Positions 25,516-56,324 of a stretch of DNA of 64,000 nucleotides are shown piece by piece (position 1 is the first letter of the stretch; each line of letters begins with the position of its first letter). A model generated the notes under the pieces. It searched no databases. It saw only the letters and a program-made list of their open reading frames with translations, and was not told the origin of the DNA. Source of the DNA: Candidatus Babelota bacterium (GTDB lineage Bacteria; Babelota; Babeliae; Babelales; Vermiphilaceae); assembly GCA_003963225.1 (NCBI GenBank), contig RXKB01000001.1, positions 105,957 to 169,956 on the forward strand, in the 5' to 3' direction. Both the position numbers and the translations under genes were made by a program.

Positions 25516-28500
25516 ATGAATTTCCTGAACGACATTTCGGTCAGCAACAACATCACTGCAACTGGGACGATCCAGTCAGCCAACCTCACATTGACCGGAC
25601 TTTCGACTGGCGCCTACACATCGGTGCTAGTGGAAAACGCTGGTATTGTCTACAAGACAAACCTCTCCGCCTCGCTCACCGTATCCAACGACACGACGAG
25701 CAACTCAGTGGTTTACCCGTTGTGGAGCGCTGCGACTAGCGGTTCTCTTGCCGCCAAGGTGTCCAGCACCAAACTGTCGTTCAACCCTGCTGCGGCCAGC
25801 CTAGCGATCGATCTGACGGCACCGACAAGCTCCGTAGTAAGTTCATATGAATTGGCGCCGGCTCTTGCGGTTGGTAATTTGAACGGTGCCAACGGAAGAT
25901 GGAGCTATGTGGCAGGGTTGATCACAGGCATTCCGACGCACGCTACGTTGCATGAGACTGATGGGCACTCGGGAAACTTCTTGACGCACTGGACAAGCCG
26001 AAGCGGTACGTTGACGGTCACTTCTACAAACGCCGGTGTAACGGTTACCAGCCCAAACGCGGTACACACAGAATATGTTGATCTTGGCTCGAACGACCTG
26101 CCAGACCACGCTCCACAATTCAGCCAAGTCAATTCAAATGGTGTCTATTCTGGTGTTGTCGTGACATTCGCTTTTGACACTGGATTAAATGGTGTCAATT
26201 ACCAAAAGCTGCACACAAGAGCGACAGATTATGAAACATATCGTCCTGTGGTGGGGTGGAAAGCGCTCAATATTGGTTACCCCACAAACATCAAGGTAAC
26301 TGTCACATGTTCTTCGGACGGAACAGCTACCACTTCAACCGTCTACACCGACAACGTTATTTTCAACGGTGCCCCGGTGTTTTACGGAGAGCGTTGGGTA
26401 GGGCCTGCAGCCCCGTGCGGTGGTTCATCAAATAACTGGATCCGCCGTGTCAGCTTCGAGTTCACACTACCAAATACCACGAACTCCGTCGACCAGGCAC
26501 GAATTCTCTACCTTGGTCTGCTCACTAACCACCCTACGTCCCTGGATACTCCGGGGCTAGCTTGCCGTAATCGTTGGTGCGCCAGCCAAAACTTCAAGGA
26601 TCTCGCCGCGCTACGATGGGAGTCAACAGGGTCAGCCGGTCCGTGGACCGCGAAAGACCACATCTGGGGACAAGGCGGTAATTTACATATACGCGCACCT
26701 CATACCTCCGGGCGCGTGATCCTAGGTTGGGACAAGGCCGGCACAAGCACGGCAGTTGTCGCAGGCGTCTACGAGTCTTCGGTCCACAAGCTTCGACCTG
26801 AAAGTCTGACCGAAAATGTCCAACTAGGAGATACTAGCTACCTTTGGAATGGTGTTTTTACAAAAAACCGATTTACCTCAATTATCCCAACTGCCACTGA
26901 CTTTCATTTTGTTGGGTCAGTGACCGGAGATTCGTTTGCTCGGAGTACTATTGACTTCAGTGGCAAAATCGAATGGGGACCAGGTAATGGCGCCAGAGAC
27001 ACAAACCTCTATCGATCTTCTGCAAATCTACTGAAGACCGACGACAATTTTGAGGCGGTTGGTTACGGTAAGTTTGAAGGTGTGTCAATCAGCAATACTG
27101 CCAGCCTGAGCAATACGTACGGTGTTCGCGTCGATACTTCAGGAGCAGGCAGCTATTCACGAGCCTTCAGGCTTGCAAACCTCAATACAACGTATTCCTC
27201 AGCAGGCTTTGGTGCCTACGGCACAGGTAACACGCTGAACTACGCGTTCATCTATGCGTTGTCCGCTGAAGCAGCGGCTACGCCAGCGGCGGATTACACC
27301 TCTGCACAGTTCCAGTTTTACCCAAACGGAAGACTCACACTTCCTACAAACTCTGCGAGCGCAGGCCTCCAGATTGGTTCAGATGTCGTACTCTACAGAA
27401 GTGTGGCATATCAGGCGGTTTTTACCAATGACTTAGCTGTGATAGTTGGTGCATCAGGTACAAACAACTATGCGCTGAATGTAACAAAATCTTGGACGGC
27501 TAATCGCGCTGGTGAAAAATCAGCGATCAACGCGGCTCCTTCGTATCAATTTGCGAGCCCTACGAGCGGAGATATTCAGCAATGTGTCCGGGCTAATGGT
27601 GCATGGAGCTTCACGTCGGCGAGTTCAACCATCGCGTACGGCGTGTTGTCGTATTTGAACTTCTCAGGAAGTGGTGGGCAAACGTCAGTCCGTGGCTTCT
27701 ACTCAAGCGGCATCATTGGAGCCGGATTTACGGTTCCAATCTTCAGCCACTACGTTGTTCAAGCTGTTTCCAACTCAGGTACGTTGACAGACCATCGAGG
27801 ACTGGATATCGCTGATTTGAGTGGCGGAACCGTTTACGGCATAAAGCTGGCCGTCACCTCAGGTGCAAACAAGTACAGCATCTACACCGGTACAGCTGAA
27901 ACGTACCTCGGTGGAAAGACAACCATCGAAGGTGTGGCAAATACCTCGTTGGTACTGAAGAACTCTTCGTCCTCTCCGTGGGCGCTTCAGATCACACGTA
28001 CAGACTTGGCAAACACGATCAGCCTGTTCAACTCGTCTGGTGTGTGGTACTTCAACGAGAACGTCAGTGCGCCTGTGCTGGTTTCCCGTATTGCAACTGG
28101 TACTGCACCGTTGACGGTGGCTTCGACCACGCTTGTCACGAATCTAAATGCTGATTTGTTGGACGGACAACACGGTTCCTATTACACGACGTTTACTAGC
28201 AATTACGTTCAATCGCGCCTGGAGAATCTAATCACAAACGGTAGTGGGTTGTTAGGAAACAACACCAACTTCACCGGTTGGACCTATGACCAGATTGAGA
28301 CACATGGCGGGCTCGGAAGCTTCAAGTACACTGGTACAGCTACTAGATACAGTGATGAGTACGTGCCTGTTGACCCAGAAAAGTATTACAAGCTCGTCGT
28401 GTGGGCTAAGGCCGGCGACACTGGTGGAACAGGGTATGACGTAAATAACCGTCAATACGCTGGTGTTGTAGTGTACGATATTGACTACAATGTCATCTTG

Positions 28501-31362
28501 CCTTGGCACTTCATGAAGTACACTGGGGCTACCGACACGACCCTGGCTGTTGCACTTAACACGGGTGACGCAGTCATGGTGCTGACGAATGCTACCGGTT
28601 GGGACAGTGGTGGTGGAGTCAACTACTCCCGGCAATTTTCATGGTGGCCTTACGTTAATGCGAAAGGCTACACATACCCAGACTACACATACTCCAGGAA
28701 TGGTTCGTTCAACAACGCATCCTACAGCACAAACGGTACGTGGAACGCAAAGAGCACGAACACCCTGACGCTGACCCAGACTTGGCCTGGACCAAACCTC
28801 CCTGCCGGTACAAAGGTTAGAAACGTAAACAGCAGCGGCACCTTCAAATACTGCCTGCTGTCGAATGTCCAGGTCCCCAATGCATGGACAAGATACGAGG
28901 GGTACATTGGTGGCTACGATACTGCGGGAACAAACTCGGCAACAATGTTCCCGTACGGCACCGCGTTCCTCAAGTTGCTATTCCTGGCGAATTATGCCGG
29001 CGGCGTCTCTGCCATCATTCGTTACTCTGACATCACGCTCAACGAAATTGACCAGCGGTTGCCTGGGTCTGCGGCGCTTCCAGCGTATTCGTTCTACACA
29101 GATCTGGACTCCGGACTGTACTCTGTCGGTGCAAACCAACTGGGCTTCTCGGTTGGTGGAGCGAACGTCCTTACCATTGACTCGAATGGTTTGACTCTGG
29201 CTTCTGGTGATAAGCTGCGAATGCCGGACAATGGAGCTATTTACGACACAACCGGTGCAATAGATCGTTTCTCATACAGCACGAACTCGGTGTACAATAC
29301 ACGAGCCAGCGGGGTGCACGTATTCCAGGCGGCAGGCTCCACCAAGGTACAGATCGACGCGACTGGCATGATGAAAATTGCCGGATCAGTGGCTGCGTTT
29401 GGAACTGCTTATCTGGATTTTTCAAACGCCGCCTCACTGAATACCTCAAGCACGATCTATGGCGTTCTCGGTGAAATTGCAAACAGCGGTACTGGCATTA
29501 TTGTAGGTAGTCGAATGATGCCTCGCGCCGGACAAACCGGCACGATGACCTACATGGCCGGATACGAGGCAATTACTCGTACTTTGGCTGCTGGCACCGT
29601 CGTCACATCTTCATATTGCTATCGTGCATTGTCACCGGTTATCACCGCCGGGTCAATTGGTACCTCTTACGGTCTACACATTCAGCGGCAGAAGCTCGCA
29701 TCAGGTGTGACCACAGGTTACGGCGTCTACCAGGCCGATACAAACGATCTGAACTACTTTGCTGGAGCTACGACCTTTGTTGGAGCCGTCACCGCTGCCA
29801 GCTTCTCTGGTCCGTTGACAGGCAACGTCACCGGTAACTGCACTGGCTCATCTGGCTCTTGCACAGGTAACGCAGCCTCGGCCACAAATACGACGAACAT
29901 CGGTCTGACCGACGACACGACCACAAACGCTGCGATGTACCCGGTGTGGGTAACTGCCGCTACGGGTAATCTGCCTGCCAAGGTCAGCTCTTCCAAGTTC
30001 ACGTTCAACCCCTCGTTTGGAACTCTTGACATAAACGGTATCTCGACCTCGCTGCACGCAATTACCCTTTTTGCGGGCAGCTATCAGGTCAACGTCACCA
30101 GTGGCATGACCCACACGGGTATTTACACCAACAATATTGGTGGTAAGGCAATGGAGCTGAACCACGGTACCTCGAACTGGATCCAGTGGGGAACCGGTGG
30201 CAGTTCTGCTCCCACCTTTACGACTTCGTCAGCTGGTACCAAACTACTGATTCATCCGGAAGTCACCGGAGCGAGCGCCGACTATGCCATCGGTATGGAG
30301 TCAAACGCCATGTGGTTCGGGGTGTCGACAACCAGCACCACCTTCAAATGGTATGGTGGCACCACCAGCATGATGACGTTGTCGAACAGTGTTCTTGCTG
30401 TCGGTGGTAACACCGTGCTGCACGCCGGTAACTACAACACGTACGCCCCTACACTCACTGGTACTGGTGCTTCTGGTTCGTGGGGTATTTCAGTCACAGG
30501 ATCTGCCGGCAGCGCCACTACAGCAACGAATGCAACCAACTCTACAAACGCCGCCATTACCAACGACACGGCAACCAACGCCGCGATGTACCCGGTGTGG
30601 GTGACAGCCAACACTGGTAACTTGCCGCTGAAGGTGACCTCCACCAAGCTTTCATTCAACCCGGCCACAAGCATGCTTGCGGTGGCAGGCTCAGTCAGCG
30701 TAAGTGGCAGCAACGGCGGATTTCTGATCAACCGTCGCGATACCGGTGCCGCAGCTTGGCAGTGGTATTCCAACGCTGGTAACCTGGAACTTTACGACCA
30801 TGTTGCTGGCTCAAACAAGATATCCTGGACACAGGCTGGTACGTGCACCATTTCGGCCACCTCGACCGTGTTCAACGGTGCCTCAGGCATCACTGTAAGT
30901 GGTGGTGCCTCGACACTCAAAGCCTCAGCATTGGGTACAGCGGCCACCTATTTCGCGGTCTTCAACGGAGACCCTGCCACTTCAGGTACAGCGGTTGTCA
31001 CCCGTACGGCAACGCAGGTGCGCTCTGATATCAGCGCGGCCCTCACAGGTGCGGTTACCGGAAGCGGGCTGACCATGAGTACGGCAAGGTTGCTTGGACG
31101 TACTACGGCTTCGACCGGTGCGATTGAGGAAATCTCCCTGGCCAACGGTACGAACTGTGCTGCCACGCTGACCGCCACCACACTGACGGTCGCTATTTCA
31201 GCCACACCTACGTTCACGGACTGCACTGTGACCGGTCGCATGAACCTGCCGACGAGCCAGCCCGGCTCTCCGGTGAACGGTTCCTGCTATTGGGACGGTT
31301 CTACCAACAAGTTCTGGGTGTACAGCAGCACTTACGGCTGGAAGAGCGTGACACTGACGTAA
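25516..31362 (+). CDS. giant tail fibre protein (1948 aa)
   Basis: Uninterrupted 5.8-kb ORF with fibre-like composition and a motif of about 45 aa present three times. Confidence 0.85.
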   Translation: MNFLNDISVSNNITATGTIQSANLTLTGLSTGAYTSVLVENAGIVYKTNLSASLTVSNDTTSNSVVYPLWSAATSGSLAAKVSSTKLSFNPAAASLAIDLTAPTSSVVSSYELAPALAVGNLNGANGRWSYVAGLITGIPTHATLHETDGHSGNFLTHWTSRSGTLTVTSTNAGVTVTSPNAVHTEYVDLGSNDLPDHAPQFSQVNSNGVYSGVVVTFAFDTGLNGVNYQKLHTRATDYETYRPVVGWKALNIGYPTNIKVTVTCSSDGTATTSTVYTDNVIFNGAPVFYGERWVGPAAPCGGSSNNWIRRVSFEFTLPNTTNSVDQARILYLGLLTNHPTSLDTPGLACRNRWCASQNFKDLAALRWESTGSAGPWTAKDHIWGQGGNLHIRAPHTSGRVILGWDKAGTSTAVVAGVYESSVHKLRPESLTENVQLGDTSYLWNGVFTKNRFTSIIPTATDFHFVGSVTGDSFARSTIDFSGKIEWGPGNGARDTNLYRSSANLLKTDDNFEAVGYGKFEGVSISNTASLSNTYGVRVDTSGAGSYSRAFRLANLNTTYSSAGFGAYGTGNTLNYAFIYALSAEAAATPAADYTSAQFQFYPNGRLTLPTNSASAGLQIGSDVVLYRSVAYQAVFTNDLAVIVGASGTNNYALNVTKSWTANRAGEKSAINAAPSYQFASPTSGDIQQCVRANGAWSFTSASSTIAYGVLSYLNFSGSGGQTSVRGFYSSGIIGAGFTVPIFSHYVVQAVSNSGTLTDHRGLDIADLSGGTVYGIKLAVTSGANKYSIYTGTAETYLGGKTTIEGVANTSLVLKNSSSSPWALQITRTDLANTISLFNSSGVWYFNENVSAPVLVSRIATGTAPLTVASTTLVTNLNADLLDGQHGSYYTTFTSNYVQSRLENLITNGSGLLGNNTNFTGWTYDQIETHGGLGSFKYTGTATRYSDEYVPVDPEKYYKLVVWAKAGDTGGTGYDVNNRQYAGVVVYDIDYNVILPWHFMKYTGATDTTLAVALNTGDAVMVLTNATGWDSGGGVNYSRQFSWWPYVNAKGYTYPDYTYSRNGSFNNASYSTNGTWNAKSTNTLTLTQTWPGPNLPAGTKVRNVNSSGTFKYCLLSNVQVPNAWTRYEGYIGGYDTAGTNSATMFPYGTAFLKLLFLANYAGGVSAIIRYSDITLNEIDQRLPGSAALPAYSFYTDLDSGLYSVGANQLGFSVGGANVLTIDSNGLTLASGDKLRMPDNGAIYDTTGAIDRFSYSTNSVYNTRASGVHVFQAAGSTKVQIDATGMMKIAGSVAAFGTAYLDFSNAASLNTSSTIYGVLGEIANSGTGIIVGSRMMPRAGQTGTMTYMAGYEAITRTLAAGTVVTSSYCYRALSPVITAGSIGTSYGLHIQRQKLASGVTTGYGVYQADTNDLNYFAGATTFVGAVTAASFSGPLTGNVTGNCTGSSGSCTGNAASATNTTNIGLTDDTTTNAAMYPVWVTAATGNLPAKVSSSKFTFNPSFGTLDINGISTSLHAITLFAGSYQVNVTSGMTHTGIYTNNIGGKAMELNHGTSNWIQWGTGGSSAPTFTTSSAGTKLLIHPEVTGASADYAIGMESNAMWFGVSTTSTTFKWYGGTTSMMTLSNSVLAVGGNTVLHAGNYNTYAPTLTGTGASGSWGISVTGSAGSATTATNATNSTNAAITNDTATNAAMYPVWVTANTGNLPLKVTSTKLSFNPATSMLAVAGSVSVSGSNGGFLINRRDTGAAAWQWYSNAGNLELYDHVAGSNKISWTQAGTCTISATSTVFNGASGITVSGGASTLKASALGTAATYFAVFNGDPATSGTAVVTRTATQVRSDISAALTGAVTGSGLTMSTARLLGRTTASTGAIEEISLANGTNCAATLTATTLTVAISATPTFTDCTVTGRMNLPTSQPGSPVNGSCYWDGSTNKFWVYSSTYGWKSVTLT

Positions 31363-31383
31363 TCCTCAGGTATATTGTCCAGC

Positions 31384-32409
31384 ATGCGTAGCCTCTACAT
31401 GTGCTGTCATCTGGACAATATGACCGGATACGGACAGCAGAATTGTCAGTTTATAGCTGGGTTCAGGGAGGCCGGAATTAACGTTTCGGCCTTTGCCACA
31501 GGCTTGGCAGACAACCCTGAGCCACTTCCTAGTTATGTAAGGGATTCTCTTGTACCAAAGTCACAGCCTTATCCGGTATTCTTGGTACAACCACCCAGCT
31601 TCCGACCGGAGAGCAAGGTCATAAACCGAGTTTGGTTTATCGTCTGGGAATCTTCCAGGTTGGACCCTCGTTGGGTTAAAAGCATCGACCAAAGCAGTGC
31701 GATCGTAACGCCAAGCGATTGGAATGCGACTTGTTTTTCTGCTTGTGGAGTTGAAGCTCCGATTTATCGTGTACCGTTGTTCACATTACCAGGATACAGC
31801 TTTCACCCTCATACAGAGAGAAACAAGTTTGTGTATGGTTGCTCCGGTCATTTGAATGGTCAGGCCGGTCGAAAAAACCTTTCAGCCGCGATTACTGCCT
31901 TTGAAACGGCCTTCCCTCGTACAGCCGATGTCGAACTTCAGGTGAAGATAGGACAATACGACTACGTCGAGCTACCAGAAGACCCACGCATTGTAGTAAC
32001 GAGAAGACACCTATCAGCTGAAGAAATGCAGAAATGGTACGCCGACTTGGACGTATTCGTTCATCCTTCCAAATCTGAAGGCTGGGGGTTCCAACCCTTG
32101 CAGGCCATGGCAACTGGCAGACCAGTAATCGCTTGCAAATACGGTGGAGTCGCCGAGTATTTTGACGACCGTGTCGGACTAGAAGTCAGCTACAGCTATC
32201 AGCCTGCGCATGACATGTATCAGGACCACGGCCACTGGGCAGAACCAGATGTTGACAGCCTGGTCGAAAACATGCTATATGCTTACTCCCATCGAGATGA
32301 AATGATTCGTCTCGGATTAAATGGAAGCGAGCGGGCCAAGAAATACACCCTGAAAAATACGATGCAAAAGCTGATCCCGGTTTTGGAGAAGCACGGCGTG
32401 ATTTTTTGA
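31384..32409 (+). CDS. glycosyltransferase, GT1/GT4-like (GT-B fold)
   Basis: SEGWGFQPLQAMATGRPVIACKYGGVAEYF matches the E-x7-E region of retaining GT-B enzymes. The ATG at 31384 is preferred over the TTG at 31375. Confidence 0.8.
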   Translation: MRSLYMCCHLDNMTGYGQQNCQFIAGFREAGINVSAFATGLADNPEPLPSYVRDSLVPKSQPYPVFLVQPPSFRPESKVINRVWFIVWESSRLDPRWVKSIDQSSAIVTPSDWNATCFSACGVEAPIYRVPLFTLPGYSFHPHTERNKFVYGCSGHLNGQAGRKNLSAAITAFETAFPRTADVELQVKIGQYDYVELPEDPRIVVTRRHLSAEEMQKWYADLDVFVHPSKSEGWGFQPLQAMATGRPVIACKYGGVAEYFDDRVGLEVSYSYQPAHDMYQDHGHWAEPDVDSLVENMLYAYSHRDEMIRLGLNGSERAKKYTLKNTMQKLIPVLEKHGVIF

Positions 32410-33272: not shown

Positions 33273-33704
33273 CTACTTCTTCTCCGGTTCGACGACCCGC
33301 ACCTCCTTCACGCGATAACGGGTATTGCCGTCAAGTGGGGAGGAAAACCCCTTCTCCTCGTAGACGACGCGCACGGTCCTGTTGTGGTCCATGGCGTTCT
33401 GGATGGCGTCGACCGGGTCTTTCCGATCCTTGTCGACCGTAAACTCCCACACATTGGCGGTGAGCTGGCTGCCTCCTTCGGAGGTGACGGTATTGCGCAT
33501 GCCGCCCATCAGCAATTCACCCTCCCAGGTCTTGAAGCTCACGCCTTTCAGGGAGAACTTGGTGATGACACCAACACGACTCCCTTCGGAGTAGGTGGAG
33601 CAGCCCCGGATGCCTCCGAGAACCATTGTGAGGAGAATGCCGACGATGGCGACACAGACGAGGAGTTCAATCAAGGTGAACCCGCGGTTAATTCGACGTT
33701 TCAT
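33273..33704 (-). CDS. prepilin-type N-terminal cleavage/methylation domain protein (pilin/pseudopilin-like)
   Basis: MKRRINRG|FTLIELLVCVAIVGILL is the class III signal peptide motif. The ORF is trimmed to that Met. Confidence 0.7.
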   Translation of the reverse strand: MKRRINRGFTLIELLVCVAIVGILLTMVLGGIRGCSTYSEGSRVGVITKFSLKGVSFKTWEGELLMGGMRNTVTSEGGSQLTANVWEFTVDKDRKDPVDAIQNAMDHNRTVRVVYEEKGFSSPLDGNTRYRVKEVRVVEPEKK

Positions 33705-35760
33705 GGATGAGTTGTGCTGCAATTGCGAGGCCGTCTTCTTTCGTATTGAATTCGCCGGCCAATTGTTTTTCCATGAGCGCGTCAAGTAGTTGCCCCATCT
33801 TAGGGCCACTGGGATACTTGAACCGCTCTATCAAGTCTCGCCCAAGAACAAGAGGCTTCGGCTTTTCGTGCTGAACACCCGCACGAGCTGCCTCGCTCTC
33901 GAACCAGGCTATCATCTGTTCGTCAGGTGGCATGGTAGGCCCACGCCCTCCTTGGTCGTATCGCAGCATTTTCACCAGCTGCTTGATAGGGACGCGTAGC
34001 GCCAACCTCCGGAAGGCCTGCAGATCTGCACCATTGCGATAGAACGAAGATGGTGTCATATGGGCCCGGCAAACTGCCAGAACCTTTTCCACCAGCTTTG
34101 TTTCATTCGTAAGGCGCGCCAGGAACCGTTCTGCCGGTCCGGTGTGATGCTCGTGATTGTGGTTGGTCCAGTGAGGCACTGGGTTCTTTTTCGTTGGGCC
34201 AAACACAGCCGTCTCAGGCTTACCCAAGTCGTGGCAAAGCGCAGCCAACCCAAGCACAAGCTTTTCCTCGTCGTCCTCGAATGTACCTTGCGTAAAGGCC
34301 TCCACCACCAACGCCGTGTGCTCGAAGACGTCACCTATTTTCACTTGATACTGCTGCGTGGAGGCGATACTATTGGGTAAATGAACGAACTGCTCGTCTC
34401 CTACGAGACCAAACTCGAAGAAACACAGTATCTTACCATCAACGGAGTAACGGCTAGAATCTATACCCATAACCGTTACCCCTATGTTTGCTGGCCAGGT
34501 AAGAAAGGCATTGGCATTCACCGGCTGATCATGGAACTCCACCTGGGACGAAAACTCAGCCGGGAAGAGCATGTCCATCACATAGACGGCAACAAAACCA
34601 ACAATGCTTTGAGCAACCTGGAAGTCGTTAACGGCCGTGCGCATAATGCTCTCCACACACGGCTTCGTAATCTCAAACATGACCCGTCCACCTTTTCGTG
34701 TCGGCATTGTTGCACCAGCGAGCGGCCACACAAAGCTCTTGGCTTGTGCGAAAACTGCTGGAGTAAACAACGCCGAAAGAAAAGAACGCAAAGACCCTGC
34801 CGTATCTGCGGCACCGAGACCGTGAAGAGGCAGATTTATGACGGCCTCTGTGCTTGTTGCGCTAGAGACAGGTTCCAGCGCTGTTTTGATTGTGGGCGTA
34901 CCGTCGACCAACTCCCCGGGCCACGAGAGACTAAGCTGTCTCCCGTCGGGTTGTGTCGTGCCTGTCGAGGAAAACGTCGACGTGGCACGCTTTAGCTCCC
35001 ATCCCTCAGGGTGCCATTTGTGATAATGCGGGCTGCCGATGAGCGCAAACAGCTCAGGATAGAAACGCTCCAACCAGCCGATGTCTCGGAGGAAATAAAG
35101 CGCCTTCCGGATATGCCGGCCCTTGAGCAGGAGCTTCTTCCACTCCTCGAACAGGCGTTCTTTCGGCAAGTTGTCTTGCGTCAGCTCTCGACACATTTCC
35201 AGACAGCGAGGTGTCGGGGTAAGATCGAAGCGTGCGATGAATTGCATGCCCCGTAGAACGCGCAACGAATCTTCCGCAAAGCGATCGGAAACGACATTGA
35301 GCACCTTGTCCCGAATATCTCGCCGGCCATTAAACGGATCGCTCCACTCCTCCGTTAGCGGATTGTATGAGATGGCGTTGATGGTGTAATCCCGCCTCGC
35401 CGCAGCCTCTTCCACCGTCATGGTGGGGTCAGCGTGAACAGCAAAGTCAGAATGCCCCACACCAGTCTTACGCTCACGTCTCGGCACCGATACATCGATC
35501 GGTAAGCCGTGTAATTTGATGATGCCGAAGGCTTTGCCGACGACATCAATTCGCCAACGCTGCGAAAGAACTGCTTCCAGGAAATTCGGCTCAATACCAA
35601 ACACCTCAATATCCACGTCTTTGAGATCAACGGGAATACCGGCGCGTTCAGCAATAAACAGATCCCGGGCGGCACCACCTACAACGTAAGCAGTACCGCC
35701 CAGGCGACGAATTTCCATGCACAGCTCAATCACGGTAGGCCACAACACCATAGTATCCAT
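33688..35760 (-). CDS. cca: CCA-adding enzyme (tRNA nucleotidyltransferase with HD domain) carrying a 223-codon in-frame insertion
   Basis: The head motif is GGAARD ... DVDIEV ... RRDYTINA. The HD-domain motif HPEG|DVFEHT is split by the insertion. LCHDLGKP lies downstream. Confidence 0.8.
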   Translation of the reverse strand: MDTMVLWPTVIELCMEIRRLGGTAYVVGGAARDLFIAERAGIPVDLKDVDIEVFGIEPNFLEAVLSQRWRIDVVGKAFGIIKLHGLPIDVSVPRRERKTGVGHSDFAVHADPTMTVEEAAARRDYTINAISYNPLTEEWSDPFNGRRDIRDKVLNVVSDRFAEDSLRVLRGMQFIARFDLTPTPRCLEMCRELTQDNLPKERLFEEWKKLLLKGRHIRKALYFLRDIGWLERFYPELFALIGSPHYHKWHPEGWELKRATSTFSSTGTTQPDGRQLSLSWPGELVDGTPTIKTALEPVSSATSTEAVINLPLHGLGAADTAGSLRSFLSALFTPAVFAQAKSFVWPLAGATMPTRKGGRVMFEITKPCVESIMRTAVNDFQVAQSIVGFVAVYVMDMLFPAEFSSQVEFHDQPVNANAFLTWPANIGVTVMGIDSSRYSVDGKILCFFEFGLVGDEQFVHLPNSIASTQQYQVKIGDVFEHTALVVEAFTQGTFEDDEEKLVLGLAALCHDLGKPETAVFGPTKKNPVPHWTNHNHEHHTGPAERFLARLTNETKLVEKVLAVCRAHMTPSSFYRNGADLQAFRRLALRVPIKQLVKMLRYDQGGRGPTMPPDEQMIAWFESEAARAGVQHEKPKPLVLGRDLIERFKYPSGPKMGQLLDALMEKQLAGEFNTKEDGLAIAAQLIHETSN
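34345..34373 (+). promoter_or_regulatory. sigma70-like promoter for the HNH gene (near-leaderless)
   Basis: TTGATA, 17-nt spacer, TACTAT, ending 7 nt before the ATG at 34381. Confidence 0.45.
34381..34995 (+). CDS. HNH homing endonuclease (HNH_3-like) with a Cys-rich C-terminal region
   Basis: HVHHIDGNKTNNALSNLEVVNGRAHN, followed by several CxxC pairs. Confidence 0.8.
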   Translation: MNELLVSYETKLEETQYLTINGVTARIYTHNRYPYVCWPGKKGIGIHRLIMELHLGRKLSREEHVHHIDGNKTNNALSNLEVVNGRAHNALHTRLRNLKHDPSTFSCRHCCTSERPHKALGLCENCWSKQRRKKRTQRPCRICGTETVKRQIYDGLCACCARDRFQRCFDCGRTVDQLPGPRETKLSPVGLCRACRGKRRRGTL

Positions 35761-50377: not shown

Positions 50378-51490
50378 TTATCGACCTTGAGCCAAGAACT
50401 TTCTTGCCTCTTCGATCGAATATCCACCACTGGCCGGAGCAGCCGCCATAGGATTACTGAGTGAAGGCGCAGTCACTTGAGGAACAGGCGCTTCCACGGG
50501 TGCCGAGATCGGCATGGATGGGACTACCGCTTTCGGAATCGATCCACCAACAATCGGCATAGGTTGAGCCACAGCCGTCGGCAAGCCGGCAGAAGGGTTC
50601 AATCCAGTACCTGGAATGTTCGCGGTGGGAATTCCGGCAGTCGGGATGCCGACCGAAGGAACCGGCACGGCGCTGGCAGACGGCAGAGCGACACCGGAGA
50701 CGGCCGAAGCCGCGCCAATGACGTGTCCGTTCGGAAGCTGATAACCCTGCATGCAGCGGTTAAAGATTTCCGTCGGAACGAAGCTCTGGAGCTTGTCCAG
50801 CAGGTAGTCGATTTCCGGATAGTGCACAACCTCGTCCAGGTTGTACAGGAAGCTGGCGTCGGCCAGTTCGACCGGCAGCTTGTAGGTCTTGGAGGCCTCA
50901 GGCGTTACGACCCAAGGTTGTCCGACCGCGTCCTTCTTCAACTGAATGAAGACGGGGATTGCCGCCTCAGGGTTGTTCAGAAGCGGAGCCTCCGAACCGT
51001 CCGGCATACGGCGACGATGCCAGGCCTCGATGTGCTCGCCTCCACCGAATTGGGGAAGGGTCAGCACGTGTGCACCCAATTGAAGGGCGCTCATGTAGGC
51101 AACGTTGAAGAGCACCTTGTTGGTCAGACGACCAAATGGTGGGTACCGCTTCACAGTACGCCCGGCTTGCTGGATCTGCTCAACCTTCGCGTAGTCAGGG
51201 TAGAATTGCTTCACCCGACCGGAGAAGTAAGCGATAGGGCAACGCTGAGGAACCGCGAAGGTTTCCTTCACGTCGATGCCGAAGTTGTCACGGATGGATA
51301 CAACCTTCCATGATACACCGCGCCCCATGGCGTCGGCCTTGTATGGGGGGAGGATGAAGAAGAAGTTGCCTTCTTTGTTCTTATCTTCGCGGAAGTTCAC
51401 GGTGCGGACACCGTCCTTGATGACTTTGCCGAAGACGTTAGTAGAGAGGTCGCTGCCGTCAAATGAGCGACTAGGTGCGATTACAGCCAT
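50378..51490 (-). CDS. hypothetical protein, possibly a gp32-like ssDNA-binding protein
   Basis: 370 aa with a low-complexity Pro/Ala/Gly C-terminal region. It sits next to the RecA-like gene. The function is a guess. Confidence 0.7.
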   Translation of the reverse strand: MAVIAPSRSFDGSDLSTNVFGKVIKDGVRTVNFREDKNKEGNFFFILPPYKADAMGRGVSWKVVSIRDNFGIDVKETFAVPQRCPIAYFSGRVKQFYPDYAKVEQIQQAGRTVKRYPPFGRLTNKVLFNVAYMSALQLGAHVLTLPQFGGGEHIEAWHRRRMPDGSEAPLLNNPEAAIPVFIQLKKDAVGQPWVVTPEASKTYKLPVELADASFLYNLDEVVHYPEIDYLLDKLQSFVPTEIFNRCMQGYQLPNGHVIGAASAVSGVALPSASAVPVPSVGIPTAGIPTANIPGTGLNPSAGLPTAVAQPMPIVGGSIPKAVVPSMPISAPVEAPVPQVTAPSLSNPMAAAPASGGYSIEEARKFLAQGR

Positions 51491-51589: not shown

Positions 51590-52213
51590 TCAGACGACCA
51601 GCATGATCTGGTCTGTAGTATCGACGCCACGGATATGGTTCAGGAAAGTCTGGGCCATCATGCTTGCCACAATGACAGGCGTGATATGTGAGACCTTCTT
51701 TTCCTTGTCCACAGCAAGCAGACAGCCTCGGCGCTCGTCGGAGTCAGACAGACTCTTTCGCAGTACCTTTTCTCCGACCTTCGAATTGAAGAGGCCGATA
51801 TTCCGGCTGCTGCAGCGACCGTCCACCCAGTAAAATTCAGGGCGGCTGAAGCCGTAGTTGTAGAGTTCCCTGCGGAACGTCATACTGTCGACACACGAGA
51901 ACACGACGTCGTAGTTCGGAAAGTCCGCTGTCGTCATGAACCGGAGTTCCGGCTTGATGACACGTGCAGTGCGTTCCGACACGATTTCAGCCTTCGGGCG
52001 GCCGATGTCGTCCTCGGTGAAATTCTGATGCAGCAGGTTGGTGTGGTCTACAGTGTCGTCATCGAACAAAGTCCACTTCCATTTGGCGAAAGGGAACTGA
52101 GCCCGATTGACTCCGAGATCATACAGGAAACCTGCGAGATAGGCGCCGATGCCACCGGCACCTGCAATAGCGACGTTCTTGATGCGACTTGCGACTTCAG
52201 ATTCAGTATTCAT
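51590..52213 (-). CDS. ThiF/MoeB/E1-like adenylyltransferase
   Basis: VAIAGAGGIGAYLAGFLYDLGV ... LFDDDTVDHTNLLHQNF ... DIGRPKAE is the Rossmann/arginine-finger region of E1-like enzymes. Confidence 0.8.
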   Translation of the reverse strand: MNTESEVASRIKNVAIAGAGGIGAYLAGFLYDLGVNRAQFPFAKWKWTLFDDDTVDHTNLLHQNFTEDDIGRPKAEIVSERTARVIKPELRFMTTADFPNYDVVFSCVDSMTFRRELYNYGFSRPEFYWVDGRCSSRNIGLFNSKVGEKVLRKSLSDSDERRGCLLAVDKEKKVSHITPVIVASMMAQTFLNHIRGVDTTDQIMLVV

Positions 52214-52232
52214 TCAAACAAAACAAGATAGG

Positions 52233-52706
52233 TTATTCAACGAGACCAGTAAGGTCGATCTCATTTACCCGCCAAATCGTGTAGTCGTCATTGGCGCTTA
52301 GGAAAGTGTACTTCTTCAATTCGCGCAATGAAGGCGACCAGATGAAGTTGACGGGCTGCCCATTGAACAGCCGTGTAAGATCGGTGAAGCTCGGACGTGC
52401 CGGAAAATTCGTCGGATGCGTATGGAAGCTGCCATAGTTCTTGAAGCCTTGGCTGTAAGAACCGATGACCTTGTCCCCATACTCCTGACGCTCAGGCTCA
52501 TACAAGCCGACAGCAGTAGGAGTGCCGGTATGTGAATTGGTGATACGATGGAACTGGTATTCATCATCCTTGCGAACGATAAACCCACCTTCCTCTTCGT
52601 CTGCGCCAAGACACGTACTGACCGCCAACTTGAGAGCCGCGTGAAGCGAATCTCCCAAGTCGGCGGCCGTAAGCGGCCCTTCTACTTTGAGGGCGTATTT
52701 CATCAT
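52233..52706 (-). CDS. JAB/MPN (JAMM) metallopeptidase
   Basis: EEEGGFIV ... HTHPTNFPARPSFTD is a complete E ... HxH ... S..D JAMM motif. Confidence 0.85.
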   Translation of the reverse strand: MMKYALKVEGPLTAADLGDSLHAALKLAVSTCLGADEEEGGFIVRKDDEYQFHRITNSHTGTPTAVGLYEPERQEYGDKVIGSYSQGFKNYGSFHTHPTNFPARPSFTDLTRLFNGQPVNFIWSPSLRELKKYTFLSANDDYTIWRVNEIDLTGLVE

Positions 52707-54709
52707 CGTGCGGCAGCTTGTGCAGCTTGTGCTCCTTCACGAACGTGGTCGCGAAGGGTGGTGATGCGATCAACAACGAACGTATCGTTCCTCAAAGCCA
52801 ACAGACGGGCGACCAGAGCGTCGTATCCGACACCCATTTCGCCACGACCATCGACGATGCAGACGTACTGATCGGTGCCGGCCTTCCAGACACGGAACTG
52901 GCCTTCTTTCTCGACGCGATAACGCTGACCGCTGTTACCGGTGATTTCGTAGGCGGTGAGGCCTTTGTAGTTGATCTCCTGCGCGCCAGTTTCCTTGACG
53001 ACAGAGGCCAACAGCTGAGCCGACTTCTTCTCGGCTTCAGTGCGTGCTTCGAGCAACAATTCGACCAGAGGCTCAAGCTCTGCCTCGGTGACGAGAGGAA
53101 CGTCCTTGTCGTCGACTGCGTGTTCACGGATGATCCGCTTCAGCTTCCACTTGCACCAGTCGGTGTTGCGGTAATTGAAACCAGAATCGTCATGAACGTA
53201 ACCGTTGTTGGTTTGACTGTTCAGCTTCTTGAGCTTGTCCAGCAAACCGACAAACCGGCGGAGCGGCACGCGACGAGTCTTTTCCTTGTCGATCCACAGG
53301 AAGTATTTTCCACCTTCCGTGATGAACTGGATCTTCGGGTGTTTCATCGTCACGTCCTGATGGTAACCAGCACGTGCAGGCAGCCAGATCTTGATCGGCA
53401 CACCATTGGCGATGGCATCGTGCACCCGCAGGGATGCCTTCTCGATCTGCCGCAGGAAGCTGTTGTATGAGGCCGCATCCGTGTAGCAAGTCGCACGACG
53501 CAACACCCGTGGGAGTTCATCGTTGTTGATGAGGTGTCCATTCACGCGGCGGCGAGTATTCGTGGTACTCAGCGACAATGTGATAGGAATGTTGTTGATG
53601 TGGAAGGTCCACTGCTTGGCTTCGGCAAAGCCTTGGCCTGAAGCATTCAACGGCACGCGAGCCGCCTCTTCGAGGATGGATGCGATGAACGCGTCGACAA
53701 GCTGGTAGATGTCGAACACACCGTTCGGATCCAACTTATGGAGGATGACGTCGGTAAGTCCAGGAGTCTCGATGCTGATGGTTTCATACACCGCACGATT
53801 CTCAGACATCTTGATGTTGTTCAGCGTGACTTCACGGATCTCTCCGCGCTGGAATTTGGTCACGATGACATTCTGGGCGTTCGTGTCGAAGTCGGCACGA
53901 ATTGTCTGCTTGAGCTGGGCATAGGCCTGGGCATACTTCTCAGGCACTTCACGTTCAGCAGCCAGGAGGATGCGCTGTAGGTCGGCCGAAACCTGCGCTG
54001 GCAGGAACACCTCATTACGCAGAAGCGGCTTGAGGCGATCCGCAGCAATGGCGTACAAGGCCGCGAAGTAATAGACGTTCAGGCTGAGCTGATTCGCCAC
54101 GAAGATCGACGGATCTTCACCAGACTTGGACACGAAGAACACGATGTGTCCACGATCCATGTAGTTGTAGAGAGGACTGTCAGTGCTGACAGCGAAATAC
54201 ATGTCGCTCTTGACCGAAGCGTCGCGAACAAAGCCGTCGCCGTGAGTCACCAGCGCCTGGCCGGTCATGACACGAAAGGTCTTGCCGTGCGACGTGATCT
54301 CACGAGGAGCAACCGTAATGAGGACAGGGATGACGATACCGAAACCGGCCTTGGAGAAATGGCCGCAGGTATCGTAGAAATACTTGATCGGGCTCTGAAG
54401 GATCGAGGTGTGCTCCTTGTTTACTTGCACGAAGCCGTTGCGATCTTGGCCCAGAGACTGGATGAACGGAGACTGCTGGCAGGCAGCAGACATCATCCGG
54501 CCCGGCAGATACCACTGACACGTTTCGCAAACAAGAGCCAGCGAATTGATGTCATTGATGTTCCCGAACTTGGGAACGAGGTGCCACTCTTGGTTTGGTC
54601 CAGACCAGAAGTTCTCGGGTTCCACCTCAATGGTGACACCGGTGGCTTCTTTCTGGATATGAGCGAACTTGCGAATTGCGGTCGAGATAGTCTTTAGAGG
54701 AATAGGCAT
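52703..54709 (-). CDS. large protein of unknown function (668 aa), translationally coupled to JAB
   Basis: The ATG at 54709 is preferred over the TTG at 54727. The stop makes an ATGA junction with the JAB start. No motif was recognised. Confidence 0.8.
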   Translation of the reverse strand: MPIPLKTISTAIRKFAHIQKEATGVTIEVEPENFWSGPNQEWHLVPKFGNINDINSLALVCETCQWYLPGRMMSAACQQSPFIQSLGQDRNGFVQVNKEHTSILQSPIKYFYDTCGHFSKAGFGIVIPVLITVAPREITSHGKTFRVMTGQALVTHGDGFVRDASVKSDMYFAVSTDSPLYNYMDRGHIVFFVSKSGEDPSIFVANQLSLNVYYFAALYAIAADRLKPLLRNEVFLPAQVSADLQRILLAAEREVPEKYAQAYAQLKQTIRADFDTNAQNVIVTKFQRGEIREVTLNNIKMSENRAVYETISIETPGLTDVILHKLDPNGVFDIYQLVDAFIASILEEAARVPLNASGQGFAEAKQWTFHINNIPITLSLSTTNTRRRVNGHLINNDELPRVLRRATCYTDAASYNSFLRQIEKASLRVHDAIANGVPIKIWLPARAGYHQDVTMKHPKIQFITEGGKYFLWIDKEKTRRVPLRRFVGLLDKLKKLNSQTNNGYVHDDSGFNYRNTDWCKWKLKRIIREHAVDDKDVPLVTEAELEPLVELLLEARTEAEKKSAQLLASVVKETGAQEINYKGLTAYEITGNSGQRYRVEKEGQFRVWKAGTDQYVCIVDGRGEMGVGYDALVARLLALRNDTFVVDRITTLRDHVREGAQAAQAAAR

Positions 54710-54738
54710 AGAGCAAGAAACAGACAAAAGTTGAATGA

Positions 54739-54762
54739 GGGGAGGAGTAGAAACTCCTCCCC
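54739..54762 (-). terminator. hairpin between the di-Ubl gene and the 668-aa gene (weak U-tract)
   Basis: Minus strand: GGGGAGGAGT-TTCT-ACTCCTCCCC. Confidence 0.45.
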
Positions 54763-54784
54763 GTTACAAGGAATCAGGAAGCGA

Positions 54785-55345
54785 TTACTGAACGCCACCG
54801 GCGAGGTCGCCAGTGAGGGTAATCGTGACAGGTCCATTCTCGGCAGTGTCCTGCACGAGATTGAACAGACGCTGAGTTTCAGCGACGAAACCAGCGGGGT
54901 CGTTCAGCGCGTCCTCGTCGAACTGGAACACCTGAGAGTTCACATACGCCCACTTCTTGTTCTTGAGGTGTGCGTCGATGACCTTGGCGATGCCAGAGGC
55001 GAGTTCCTCCGTGCTCTCGGTATGACCGGAGGCATCAGTGATGCGGAGGGTGAAGGTCTTCGGAGCGTCGGCTCCACCAGCGAGATCGCCGGTGAGAGTC
55101 ACAACAATATCCTCGTCGGAGGACTCGATCATCTCACGGAGACGAGCGGCGTCCTGGAGGATCTGAGGATCCTCGGCAGAGGTAGCATTGAACTGGAAGA
55201 CTCGGGAGCCAACGTAGGCCCACTTCTTGTTCTTCAGATGCGCGTCGAGAACAGTCTGGATCGCGGTTGCGAGATCCTGTTCCAGGTCGGTGTGACCGGA
55301 CGCGTCAGTGATGCGGAGATGAACGAGGCGAGTAGAGGTAGCCAT
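54785..55345 (-). CDS. tandem di-ubiquitin-like precursor (two repeats of about 90 aa, each ending LTGDLAGG)
   Basis: Trimmed to MATSTRLVHL. Repeat 1 covers aa 1-91 and repeat 2 covers aa 99-184, followed by VQ. Confidence 0.65.
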   Translation of the reverse strand: MATSTRLVHLRITDASGHTDLEQDLATAIQTVLDAHLKNKKWAYVGSRVFQFNATSAEDPQILQDAARLREMIESSDEDIVVTLTGDLAGGADAPKTFTLRITDASGHTESTEELASGIAKVIDAHLKNKKWAYVNSQVFQFDEDALNDPAGFVAETQRLFNLVQDTAENGPVTITLTGDLAGGVQ

Positions 55346-55448: not shown

Positions 55449-56201
55449 TCAATGAACAGGAAACTGAATGTTTCTGAGCCGAATTTTGTCGTTGTAAGTC
55501 ATACATAGTCTGCACTTTGCACAAGCTCCTTGCGAACTGTCGTTCTTGAGCTTTCCAGAGACTTCCGGGCAAACGACCCATCGTTCTCCAGCTGGCTGAG
55601 TGCCTATGTTTCCCATGTAACAGATTCCTACATTCGGATGACCAAGGTGGCAGATGTCGTAGACCGCTTTGGCCTCCGCATAATTCACCGGGTCAGATGA
55701 AATGTAGATGGACAAATTCGGGCAATCCATCAGCAGAGGTATTGCCCAAAGACTTCTCGTGTATGTCCAGAACTGTACGTTGGGGTATTTAAGAATCGTC
55801 GCGGCCCATGCTCTGGCGTAGTCCTCCGAAAAGAAATCGCCTGATGTATGTAACCGGAAATACAGGTTGTTGCCCTTGTTATGCTTCACGAAGGCAGCAA
55901 CTGTTTCTGTGAGGACTACTTCCATCTCGGCTTGAGTTTTGCCGCGGAGTAGTTCGGTATTTCGTTGGAGGACCTTTCCAAAATTTGGGTAAGCCTTAAC
56001 CAGTTTATCTACGTAGCAAGTAGCGTTTACGCCACCCACACGTTTCAGGCTGAGACACCCACCTGCGCCAGACGTGGAACCAGGACAGGTACCACCGTTT
56101 TCTGGGCGACCGTGAAGCAATCCGAACGTGTTGTAATGGCCGGATTTGAACTTAACTTTGGAATTGTCAGTAAGCTTTAGCGTCGTTGTCGTTTCTGTCA
56201 T
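55449..56201 (-). CDS. Cys-rich protein, GP88-like (TCPG ... C ... CY motif)
   Basis: Trimmed to the ATG (MTETTTT). Contains GTCPGSTSGAGGC ... ATCYV and GACAKCRLC. Confidence 0.6.
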   Translation of the reverse strand: MTETTTTLKLTDNSKVKFKSGHYNTFGLLHGRPENGGTCPGSTSGAGGCLSLKRVGGVNATCYVDKLVKAYPNFGKVLQRNTELLRGKTQAEMEVVLTETVAAFVKHNKGNNLYFRLHTSGDFFSEDYARAWAATILKYPNVQFWTYTRSLWAIPLLMDCPNLSIYISSDPVNYAEAKAVYDICHLGHPNVGICYMGNIGTQPAGERWVVCPEVSGKLKNDSSQGACAKCRLCMTYNDKIRLRNIQFPVH

Positions 56202-56280
56202 TGTTTGCTGTTGCGTTGAGCGGACTCTTTGCAAAAACAAAACAAGATAGATCAAGACAAGATACGATAATCAGAAGTCA

Positions 56281-56324
56281 GACAAAACAAGATAGAAAGG
56301 CGTGCCAGGGGTTACCTGGCACGC
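56281..56324 (-). terminator. rho-independent terminator
   Basis: Minus strand: GCGTGCCAGG-TAACC-CCTGGCACGC followed by CTTTCTATCTTGTTTTG. Confidence 0.65.

Follow-up and report, generated by a model that had tools for sequence, protein, structure and literature searches.

In the CysO/MoeZ/Mec+ and QbsE/QbsC/QbsD systems, JAB peptidases mature or unload sulfur carriers. The bacterial operons known to conjugate ubiquitin-like proteins (Ubls) are defence systems (PMC11601596), and descriptions of Bil, Bub and Cap2/Cap3 of the cyclic oligonucleotide-based antiphage signalling system (CBASS) have to date presented them as ways in which hosts resist phages. In lambda and T1, the Ubl TAPI is paired with TAPK, a JAB-NlpC/P60 protein whose JAB is predicted to cut after the C-terminal glycine (Iyer 2006). 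Here, we describe a four-gene module that encodes a tandem Ubl precursor, a partner protein of 668 amino acids (aa), a JAB peptidase and a short E1-like adenylyltransferase. It lies in a 64-kb stretch of DNA (hereafter the window), part of a contig of ~226 kb (RXKB01000001.1); the negative results for an E2 and for a sulfur donor cover these 64 kb.

The main new result is the conservation of this module. The logic of precursor Ubl, JAB and E1 is a fixed part of the replication operon in many uncultivated phages, from contigs of ~25 kb to jumbo genomes of ~240 kb. Sequence comparison shows which parts there are and that they are conserved, that the catalytic motifs are intact, and that a di-glycine (GG) rule applies to the Ubl. 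The four genes and their parts are as follows.

54785..55345, minus strand: tandem Ubl precursor, 186 aa (open reading frame and repeat comparison)
55073-55345, minus strand: Ubl repeat 1, residues 1-91, ending LTGDLAGG
54794-55072, minus strand: Ubl repeat 2, residues 92-184, ending LTGDLAGG
54785-54793, minus strand: VQ tail and stop codon of the Ubl gene
52703..54709, minus strand: 668-aa partner protein, with the same ATG start as the identical database protein P0001
52233..52706, minus strand: JAB/JAMM zinc metallopeptidase, 157 aa
51590..52213, minus strand: minimal adenylyltransferase of E1 type, 207 aa, made of one Rossmann domain of the ThiF/MoeB type

Four consecutive, co-oriented open reading frames (ORFs) had been proposed here from the letters alone (the original prediction), and all four were recovered on the minus strand with the same coordinates. 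The ATGA overlap in which the 668-aa gene stops and the JAB gene starts is also present, the sequence reading cgATGATGaaa.

Conservation and genomic setting of the module

We compared 60 related loci by searching six-frame ORFs with hidden Markov models (HMMs) built from the window proteins and a few relatives, and inspected gaps by eye. In 57 of the 60 loci, the genes for the Ubl, the large protein, the JAB and the E1 stand side by side in one orientation, a count that overstates independence because many of the fetched loci are near-duplicates, so that the 43 distinct Ubls are the better measure. The loci span ~25-100% identity of the large protein, and the co-occurrence confirms that the four genes are a real conserved functional unit. 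Among the remaining loci, L006 is cut at a contig end, and L058 and L059, which share one sequence, have no JAB. In L025 the contig ends inside the large-protein gene; the large protein, JAB and E1 are still present, and no Ubl gene is seen.

The order in large phages, the window included, is Ubl, large protein, zero to two extra genes, JAB and E1, and in a distant clade (contigs of ~25-90 kb) it is large protein, Ubl, JAB and E1. In 57 of 61 loci (window counted), at most 7 kb separate the module from a family-A DNA polymerase or a different replisome gene. For example, L007 and L027 carry the module exactly between a DnaG-type primase and the polymerase, and one Joint Genome Institute contig has it between ribonucleotide reductase/HD and ThyX. 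In the window, HMM matches upstream of the module, beyond a GP88-family gene, identify a family-A DNA polymerase and a DnaB-like helicase, and downstream stand a 370-aa protein with a long low-complexity tail and then a RecA/UvsX-like recombinase. The polymerase, helicase and recombinase neighbours, together with the related loci, bear out the earlier placement of the module in a replication/recombination block.

Extra genes between the large protein and the JAB are seen in L001 (10033-10952), L003 (7740-8664), L014, L016, L020, L022 and L024. They are either a pair of proteins of 187-193 and 115-132 aa or a DnaQ/PolB-like 3'-5' exonuclease, and replication genes and the module are interleaved. 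These genes were considered as hidden E2s and set aside, one being an exonuclease and the paired proteins being without a family match.

The description of the locus as phage-borne is an indirect attribution. Relatives come from IMG/VR viral contigs, one relative (L007) has a terminase, and window proteins have PHROG matches to tail-fibre and head-decoration families. From these observations, and from contig sizes of 180-240 kb, we infer that the window's contig is phage in nature. An identical 668-aa protein is deposited at NCBI on a 226,528-bp contig with the metagenome-assembled genome (MAG) label 'Candidatus Dependentiae bacterium', and bins named 'uncultured Sediminibacterium sp.' (with a 211,238-bp contig) and 'uncultured Azospirillum sp.' contain close relatives (L025 and L026). 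The Dependentiae, Sediminibacterium and Azospirillum contigs look like phage genomes that were mis-binned into MAGs.

Among 185,579 bacterial and archaeal genomes, one per species, a search for close large-protein relatives returned only two MAG contigs, one of which is phage-sized (211 kb) and has the same module. The 50,697 GenBank phage records gave no match to the locus by megablast, and none by tblastn to its Ubl, 668-aa protein or E1 or to either of two distant large proteins. The literature searched on phage-encoded E1, JAB and Ubl systems holds no description of the four-gene module, which appears to be undescribed so far.

The Ubl precursor, the JAB peptidase and the E1-like protein

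The first gene had been read as a tandem Ubl ending in GG. The protein is a true tandem, with repeats that are 53% identical (E 8e-31); its C-terminus, on the other hand, reads GG-VQ, with an internal GG at residues 90-91. Nineteen homologues retain both GG motifs, and the residues beyond the second one vary. GG stands at or near the C-terminus in all 43 distinct Ubls, directly before the stop in 20 of them, followed by 1-9 non-conserved residues in 22 and by 158 aa in one. In the di-Ubl forms of the window's clade, GG closes both repeats. A conserved di-glycine followed by an unconserved tail is the signature of a modifier that a protease matures before its C-terminus is activated. The C-terminal stretch of the window's Ubl (…DIVVTLTGDLAGG) has neither Arg nor Lys close by, and trypsin would therefore leave no GG remnant.

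In the single long form (L005, 5758-6492), the Ubl, which ends LTGDMTGG, continues into a C-terminal extension of 158 aa that has no family match, a fusion precursor that recalls eukaryotic ubiquitin-ribosomal-protein fusions.

An AlphaFold2 (AF2) model of the Ubl, built with 19 homologues, has a predicted local distance difference test (pLDDT) score of 76. Each repeat is predicted to run beta-beta-alpha-beta-beta-alpha-beta, with disordered GDLAGG tails. The best Foldseek match in PDB is the tandem di-Ubl of chicken OASL (E 3.9e-3, probability 0.72), further matches include SUMO fusions, PB1, FERM F0/F1 and the PLIC-2 Ubl, and the top matches are all ubiquitin-like. The suggestion that the repeats might fold as beta-grasp domains agrees with a ubiquitin-like predicted topology and ubiquitin-like top fold matches, a consistent prediction. 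It is a prediction rather than proof, because the fold scores are weak and the sequence is not recognized by HMMs, with no Ubl-type match in Pfam or NCBIfam and no match to ThiS/MoaD. A Pfam FhaA_N match (25.5 bits against a cut-off of 25) has no single stretch that passes, and we treated it as uninformative. The predicted beta1-beta2 turn of the family carries a strongly conserved ITDASGHT (variants VSSRGHDE and IADRTGHS, the His sometimes being Asp), which is unusual among ubiquitin-like proteins.

The JAB has the complete E…HxH…S..D motif that had been noticed in it, with E38, H95, H97, S106 and D109 conserved in 20-21 of 21 relatives, and it aligns to the solved JAMM structure 2kcq across HTHP…PSFTD. 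Its match to Pfam Prok-JAB (3e-4, 21.1 bits) is under the cut-off of 25, matches to PADLOC JAB models reach 1.3e-4, and a match to Cap3 is weak and partial (0.032). Divergent JABs that the HMM missed still display E..HxHP..S..D. A JAB is present in many phages whose Ubl already ends GG-stop; as such, where the peptidase is kept and the Ubl needs no trimming, maturation cannot be its sole role. This implies that the JAB reverses a linkage or frees a product from the carrier. The sole lineage without a JAB gene (L058/L059, 8134-8343) has the large protein, a 69-aa Ubl ending …TLGG-stop and then the E1 directly.

The assignment of the last gene as a short ThiF/E1-like adenylyltransferase is upheld by Pfam ThiF (1.5e-16; 60.7 bits against a cut-off of 28.1), the alignment spanning model positions 22-207 of 238. 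In NCBIfam the best match is PRTRC_ThiF (46.7 bits against a cut-off of 144.75), followed by ThiF and MoeB, also far under their cut-offs. A SAMP-activating E1 model gives 21 bits (cut-off 450), and PADLOC E1-E2 models give weak, partial matches, at best 5e-8, to the Rossmann part only. The family comprises 232 homologues of ~200 aa on contigs of up to 239 kb.

Residues invariant in 22 relatives include the glycine loop AGAGGIG, D51, D53, NLLHQN, K74, D109, R114, DGRCxSR (C134) and C164, and among these D109/R114 (VDSMxFR) and K74 (GRPK), residues of the ATP/Mg site, align with Escherichia coli ThiF (1zud). C164 (GCLL) and C134 (DGRCxSR), invariant in the same 22 relatives, lie in or after the crossover loop, where a cysteine could accept the activated C-terminus; the L007 protein has a cysteine (GSGSCQ) at a comparable distance from its C-terminus, as judged by eye rather than by alignment. 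The N-terminus is variable or absent among relatives, and the L007 protein starts MKILLIGAGGIG. The protein is a single adenylation domain, with neither a rhodanese nor an E2 domain. We assume that the E1 is competent for adenylation.

The large partner protein and the readings of the module

The 668-aa protein had been described as lacking any recognizable motif, and it indeed has no match in Pfam, NCBIfam, PHROGs or PADLOC, and none in PDB by sequence or profile search. Its AF2 model has a pLDDT of 85 and a predicted template modelling (pTM) score of 0.54. Foldseek searches of PDB with this model return nothing below E 0.07, and an oligonucleotide-binding (OB) fold identity (SSB/PriB) was dropped at a Foldseek probability of 0.1-0.3, too weak to use. 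Structural relatives in BFVD are three viral proteins without names (416-452 aa) that offer no functional lead.

Close relatives of the protein number 20 in a collection of 5.8 billion proteins, the longest of their contigs being 226 kb. When 1.84 billion cluster representatives were searched with a profile, 537 matched at E<=1e-3, of which 376 also at E<=1e-10, mostly of 600-750 aa, so that the family, at the former threshold, holds at least 537 representative clusters. Conservation was scored over 186 diverse members. Cys408 is kept in 174 of 176 sequences and Cys617 in 182 of 182, and Y597, G591, D630, R635, N641, D642, T651-L652, N390, E398 and G436 are also near-invariant. By region, the conserved residues are as follows.

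Region 1, N-terminal and beta-rich: E137, R146 and YNYxDxG (D185)
Region 2, central: N390, N395, E398 and Cys408
Region 3, C-terminal, ~residues 540-652: Y597, Cys617 (CIV), D630, R635, N641-D642 and T651-L652

A distant subfamily also retains YNYxDxG (D185), E137 and R146. Conservation drops toward the N-terminus, and length varies from 600 to 950 aa. No lysine is conserved at 85% or more across the 186 members, and together with the invariant cysteines and polar residues this fits an enzyme better than a passive lysine acceptor. The pattern suggests an enzyme made of a variable recognition part and a conserved catalytic core. A relative that corresponds to the C-terminal half (P0198, 331 aa) sits on a 1.5-kb contig.

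The original prediction saw no obvious E2 in the cluster, and none was detected. Its naming of the 668-aa protein as the candidate for a divergent E2/ligase finds, where a UBC-type E2 is meant, no support from HMM, profile-profile or fold searches. UQ_con, Prok-E2 and RWD are absent from the Pfam results for the protein, isolated C-terminal domains included (E<=10), ten distant members of the family have no family match, PADLOC E1-E2 models do not match the protein, and no E2 is among the 50 Foldseek PDB matches listed for its model (E up to 3.5). Against four eukaryotic E2s, hhalign gives a probability of 0.5%; the best local alignment involves the N-terminus of the large protein and places Cys61, which is missing in distant members, opposite the E2 cysteine. 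E2 membership was rejected after these negative HMM, PDB profile, Foldseek and hhalign tests. The protein may be a non-UBC transferase or a target, in that case perhaps the pathway's first.

Near Cys617, AF2 predicts a helix (543-574), four strands (577-609), the Cys loop and helices (629-667). The order of these elements gives an impression of the UBC fold, to which we assign no weight because this region is the least confident of the model. Fifteen of 30 diverse C-terminal domains of the family match Pfam DUF7737, all under the 27-bit threshold (best 26.4 bits, E 7.3e-6), in a fixed register that aligns residues ~32-91 of the domain fragment to profile positions 5-64 of 103. The window's own C-terminal domain has no DUF7737 match. 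This is an uncharacterized family, of which the literature searched makes no mention.

We propose, with a probability of about 0.5, that the module encodes a phage pathway for Ubl processing and activation, set beside replisome genes, in which the large protein would act as a downstream cysteine acceptor or transferase. In this pathway, the JAB would cut after Gly91 and Gly184, giving two mature Ubls and removing the VQ tail. The E1, probably a homodimer like ThiF and MoeB, would then adenylate the exposed C-terminal glycine and may carry the Ubl on Cys164 or Cys134. The activated Ubl would pass to the 668-aa protein, a putative non-UBC cysteine-dependent acceptor or transferase that uses Cys617 and/or Cys408, or directly to a target, and the poorly conserved N-terminal part of the 668-aa protein would choose the substrate. 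The JAB would also reverse the linkage, which would explain its retention in phages whose Ubl is born ending GG; that the Ubl ends exactly at GG in the only loci without a JAB (L058/L059) we count in favour of the pathway. Likely substrates would be phage or host proteins at DNA replication, given that polymerase, primase, single-strand DNA-binding protein (SSB) and RecA genes are linked to the module in every clade.

A fuller version, which we hold tentatively and rate below the proposal above, is that tailed phages encode a conjugation pathway made of a minimal E1 and a new non-UBC, cysteine-dependent Ubl transferase, and that it reversibly tags replisome or host proteins during replication. 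As part of the same tentative version, the ~670-aa family would make up the transferase class; its Cys617 would lie within a C-terminal domain that resembles DUF7737, ~35 residues before the protein's conserved end.

Several observations weigh against the proposed pathway. No test found similarity to E2/UBC, RWD, HECT or RING in the large protein, the only arguments for its transferase role are the invariant cysteines and synteny, and its AF2 model is weakest around Cys617 (pLDDT below 50 at residues 619-627). No cultured phage in the GenBank phage collection has the module. The E1 has no CxxC zinc site, and the arginine finger, whose lack the original prediction named as fatal to its case, is absent at the canonical position: there is no N-terminal RYxRQ arginine-finger helix, with only 13 residues ahead of the glycine loop, and the Arg of NLxRQ is replaced by His (NLLHQN) throughout the large-phage clade (NIRYQ in L007). 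We do not take the missing finger to refute adenylation, since the other adenylation-site residues are invariant. The invariant R133, R137 and R195 might stand in for it.

A Ubl with an E1 and a JAB and no E2 is, finally, equally the make-up of a sulfur carrier. The Ubl would then be adenylated by the E1 and converted to a C-terminal thiocarboxylate via a host persulfide donor, and the 668-aa protein would be a sulfurtransferase whose two cysteines relay or resolve the persulfide, the outcome being a thiolated nucleotide, base or cofactor for replication; the JAB would mature the carrier and/or free an amide-linked product, as Mec+ does for CysO. The combination of Ubl-GG, a single-domain ThiF-like E1 and a JAB without an E2 is indeed the composition of ThiS/MoaD/CysO/QbsE-type systems (Iyer 2006), ThiF and MoeB come next after PRTRC_ThiF among the NCBIfam matches of the E1, and the two invariant partner cysteines and the invariant crossover-region cysteine of the E1 would suit such a pathway, as would nucleotide-metabolism neighbours (ThyX, dUTPase, ribonucleotide reductase, NUDIX and GP88). 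By contrast, the E1 lacks a rhodanese domain, precomputed gene lists within 6-9 kb hold no cysteine desulfurase, rhodanese, PP-loop ATPase or known acceptor, and the partner has no recognizable nucleotide-binding motif. The Ubl, moreover, has no ThiS/MoaD HMM match, its folds match ubiquitin, SUMO and PB1 rather than ThiS, and poly-Ubl and Ubl-fusion (L005) precursors are typical of conjugated modifiers. We consider a sulfur carrier unlikely, though a serious rival.

Conjugation by the E1 without any transferase, in the style of archaeal SAMP/UbaA and Thermus TtuB/TtuC, would make the 668-aa protein the main substrate, switched reversibly as the JAB removes the Ubl. No E2 is found in any locus, the Ubl gene always adjoins the large gene on one side or the other, the JAB is kept even where there is nothing to trim from the Ubl, which is what a reversible mark would call for, and archaeal SAMP1 and HvJAMM1 give a precedent for reversible Ubl control of an enzyme without E2 or E3 (PMC4443979). 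This reading, too, is a serious rival that seems improbable to us, because no large-protein lysine reaches 85% over the 186 members, the near-invariant cysteines and polar residues would be superfluous in a pure substrate, and the E1, at 21 bits against a cut-off of 450, is no UbaA orthologue. Finally, the module could be a captured anti-phage system of Bil, Bub or CBASS type that serves superinfection exclusion, or a counter-defence in which the JAB strips host Ubl or cGAS conjugates. Precedent comes from the known bacterial Ubl-conjugating operons, which are defence systems (PMC11601596), and the weak PADLOC matches to E1-E2 (5e-8) and JAB (1.3e-4) would agree with it. We regard such a capture as very improbable, however, as there is no UBC E2, E1-E2 or JAB-E1 fusion, IAD-AAD-CYS E1, DUF6527 or CD-NTase; among the 185,579 species genomes, only two MAG contigs, one phage-sized, have close large-protein relatives; and the module, rather than occupying an accessory island that varies, keeps a fixed place in the core replication operon of phages that diverge widely.

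If conjugation is true, then Ubl tagging serves phages in their own replication or in taking over the host, and there are Ubl transferases of a new type. This would be the first viral (phage) Ubl conjugation system, and a third solution to the E2 step beside UBC thioesters and Bub oxyesters. If the sulfur carrier is true instead, the module indicates that phages have a sulfur-containing modification of nucleotides or nucleic acids that is new.

Flanking elements and comparison with described systems

Around the four genes, the window contains the following elements.

54739..54762, minus strand: perfect 10-bp, G+C-rich hairpin, GGGGAGGAGU-UUCU-ACUCCUCCCC (read and folded)
55449..56255, minus strand: cysteine-rich GP88-family gene (Pfam GP88, PF17338, 1.2e-29; phrog_1392)
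56300-56324, minus strand: terminator-like hairpin of 10 pairs (8 G-C) with a T-rich tail, between a 360-aa gene and the GP88 gene
50378-51490, minus strand: 370-aa protein, between the E1 and RecA genes, no family match
58452-61316, minus strand: family-A DNA polymerase (PHROG polymerase match)

The first hairpin is in the 75-nt intergenic stretch that separates the Ubl gene from the 668-aa gene. It folds at -23 kcal/mol (z = -3.8), which none of 200 shuffles equals, and a U-rich run begins only 8 nt past its stem. It may be an attenuator or partial terminator, or an RNA-stability element, that gives an excess of Ubl over the enzymes. The second hairpin (56300-56324) suggests that GP88, Ubl, large protein, JAB and E1 start a new transcription unit. 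No sigma-70-like promoter was found between 51300 and 56500, where 3.4 would be expected.

The GP88 gene adjoins the Ubl gene upstream in the window and stands upstream of it in 22 of 27 loci (L001-L027), with a tandem duplication in L003 (3548-5275). In the small-phage loci (L007, L027 and L028-L060), no GP88 gene was detected close to the module. The protein is rich in conserved cysteines (GGTCPGxxxGxGGC…C and CPExSG…GxCxKCRLC) and has the look of an Fe-S or Zn enzyme. PDB contains no relative of it, and the literature searched holds nothing on PF17338. GP88 is a conserved neighbour in the large-phage clade and, judged by its position, a candidate only for membership of the system. The 370-aa protein has a long Pro/Ala/Gly/Val-rich low-complexity region and a short charged C-terminal end (…YSIEEARKFLAQGR), and every large-phage relative has its gene in the same place, between those for the E1 and RecA. 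The protein may bind single-stranded DNA.

The family-A polymerases of related loci have an N-terminal uracil-DNA-glycosylase-like domain (PF03167). Farther away in the window are genes for a PP2C-type protein phosphatase (37496-38398), a 690-aa tRNA-nucleotidyltransferase-like protein (33688-35760), a GT4 glycosyltransferase (31375-32409) and an ORF of 1948 aa (25516-31362) with no match in Pfam or PHROG.

Compared with described systems, the module resembles the Ubl-E1-JAB cores of Iyer et al. 2006. In the anti-phage operons called Bil (bacterial ISG15-like; BilA Ubl, BilB E2, BilC JAB and BilD E1), as in the module, the Ubl, which has a C-terminal glycine, the JAB and the E1 each have a gene of their own, and Bil Ubls, as is predicted for those of the module, can hold more than one beta-grasp domain (PMC11601596). 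In contrast to the module, Bil has a UBC-type E2 and an IAD-AAD-CYS E1, and it is located in bacterial defence islands rather than in phage replication operons; the module has a Ubl and a JAB, an E1 that is a single 207-aa adenylation domain and, with no E2 found, a ~670-aa protein in the remaining place. Bub (6E/DUF6527) shares with the module a Ubl of 1-3 beta-grasp domains (predicted ones in the module), a JAB that, in Bub, cleaves the precursor to yield the mature Ubl, and an E1 without a canonical catalytic-cysteine domain (PMC11601596). It differs in its Ubl-E2 and JAB-E1 (or E2-E1) fusions and its DUF6527 serine protease, none of which the module has, its four genes being separate and without a DUF6527 or E2 match in Pfam or PADLOC. 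Bub also uses oxyesters, whereas the module has invariant cysteines on the E1 and on its partner. For CBASS Cap2/Cap3, which consists of an E1-E2 fusion (Cap2), a JAB (Cap3) and a CD-NTase that is conjugated at its C-terminus, the module gives weak partial matches and contains no CD-NTase.

Among mobile elements, PRTRC (the ParB-related, ThiF-related cassette of plasmids and integrative and conjugative elements) is, like the module, tied to DNA maintenance genes, and PRTRC_ThiF, as the module's E1, starts at the Rossmann strand (query 4-135 to model 4-143). The score is 46.7 against 144.75 (TIGR03736), and the Ubl, JAB and large protein have no match to PRTRC_A-F or ParB (E<=0.1). TAPI/TAPK is the only phage-borne pairing of a Ubl and a JAB noted previously (Iyer 2006), a pairing that the module shares; it has no E1 and no large cysteine-bearing partner, and is found with tail rather than replication genes.

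The CysO and Qbs systems have in common with the module a GG carrier, sometimes with a short tail that the JAB removes, and a ThiF-family E1. Unlike the module, they have a rhodanese on the E1 and a sulfur acceptor encoded in the operon (CysM, ThiG or MoaE). Measured against the ThiS/MoaD/CysO group as a whole, the module shows no carrier HMM match, no E1 rhodanese and no linked desulfurase, rhodanese or acceptor genes. Nearest in composition are the E2-less SAMP/UbaA/JAMM and TtuB/TtuC systems. Archaeal SAMP/UbaA/HvJAMM1 and Thermus TtuB/TtuC combine, as the module does, a Ubl-GG, a MoeB-like E1 and a JAMM with no E2 or E3, and their dual potential for conjugation and sulfur transfer is the very ambiguity met in the module. 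The module, for its part, has a much shorter, non-orthologous E1 without the zinc site or Arg finger and a Ubl that is not ThiS/MoaD-like by HMM; it also adds an obligatory large partner, and it is viral.

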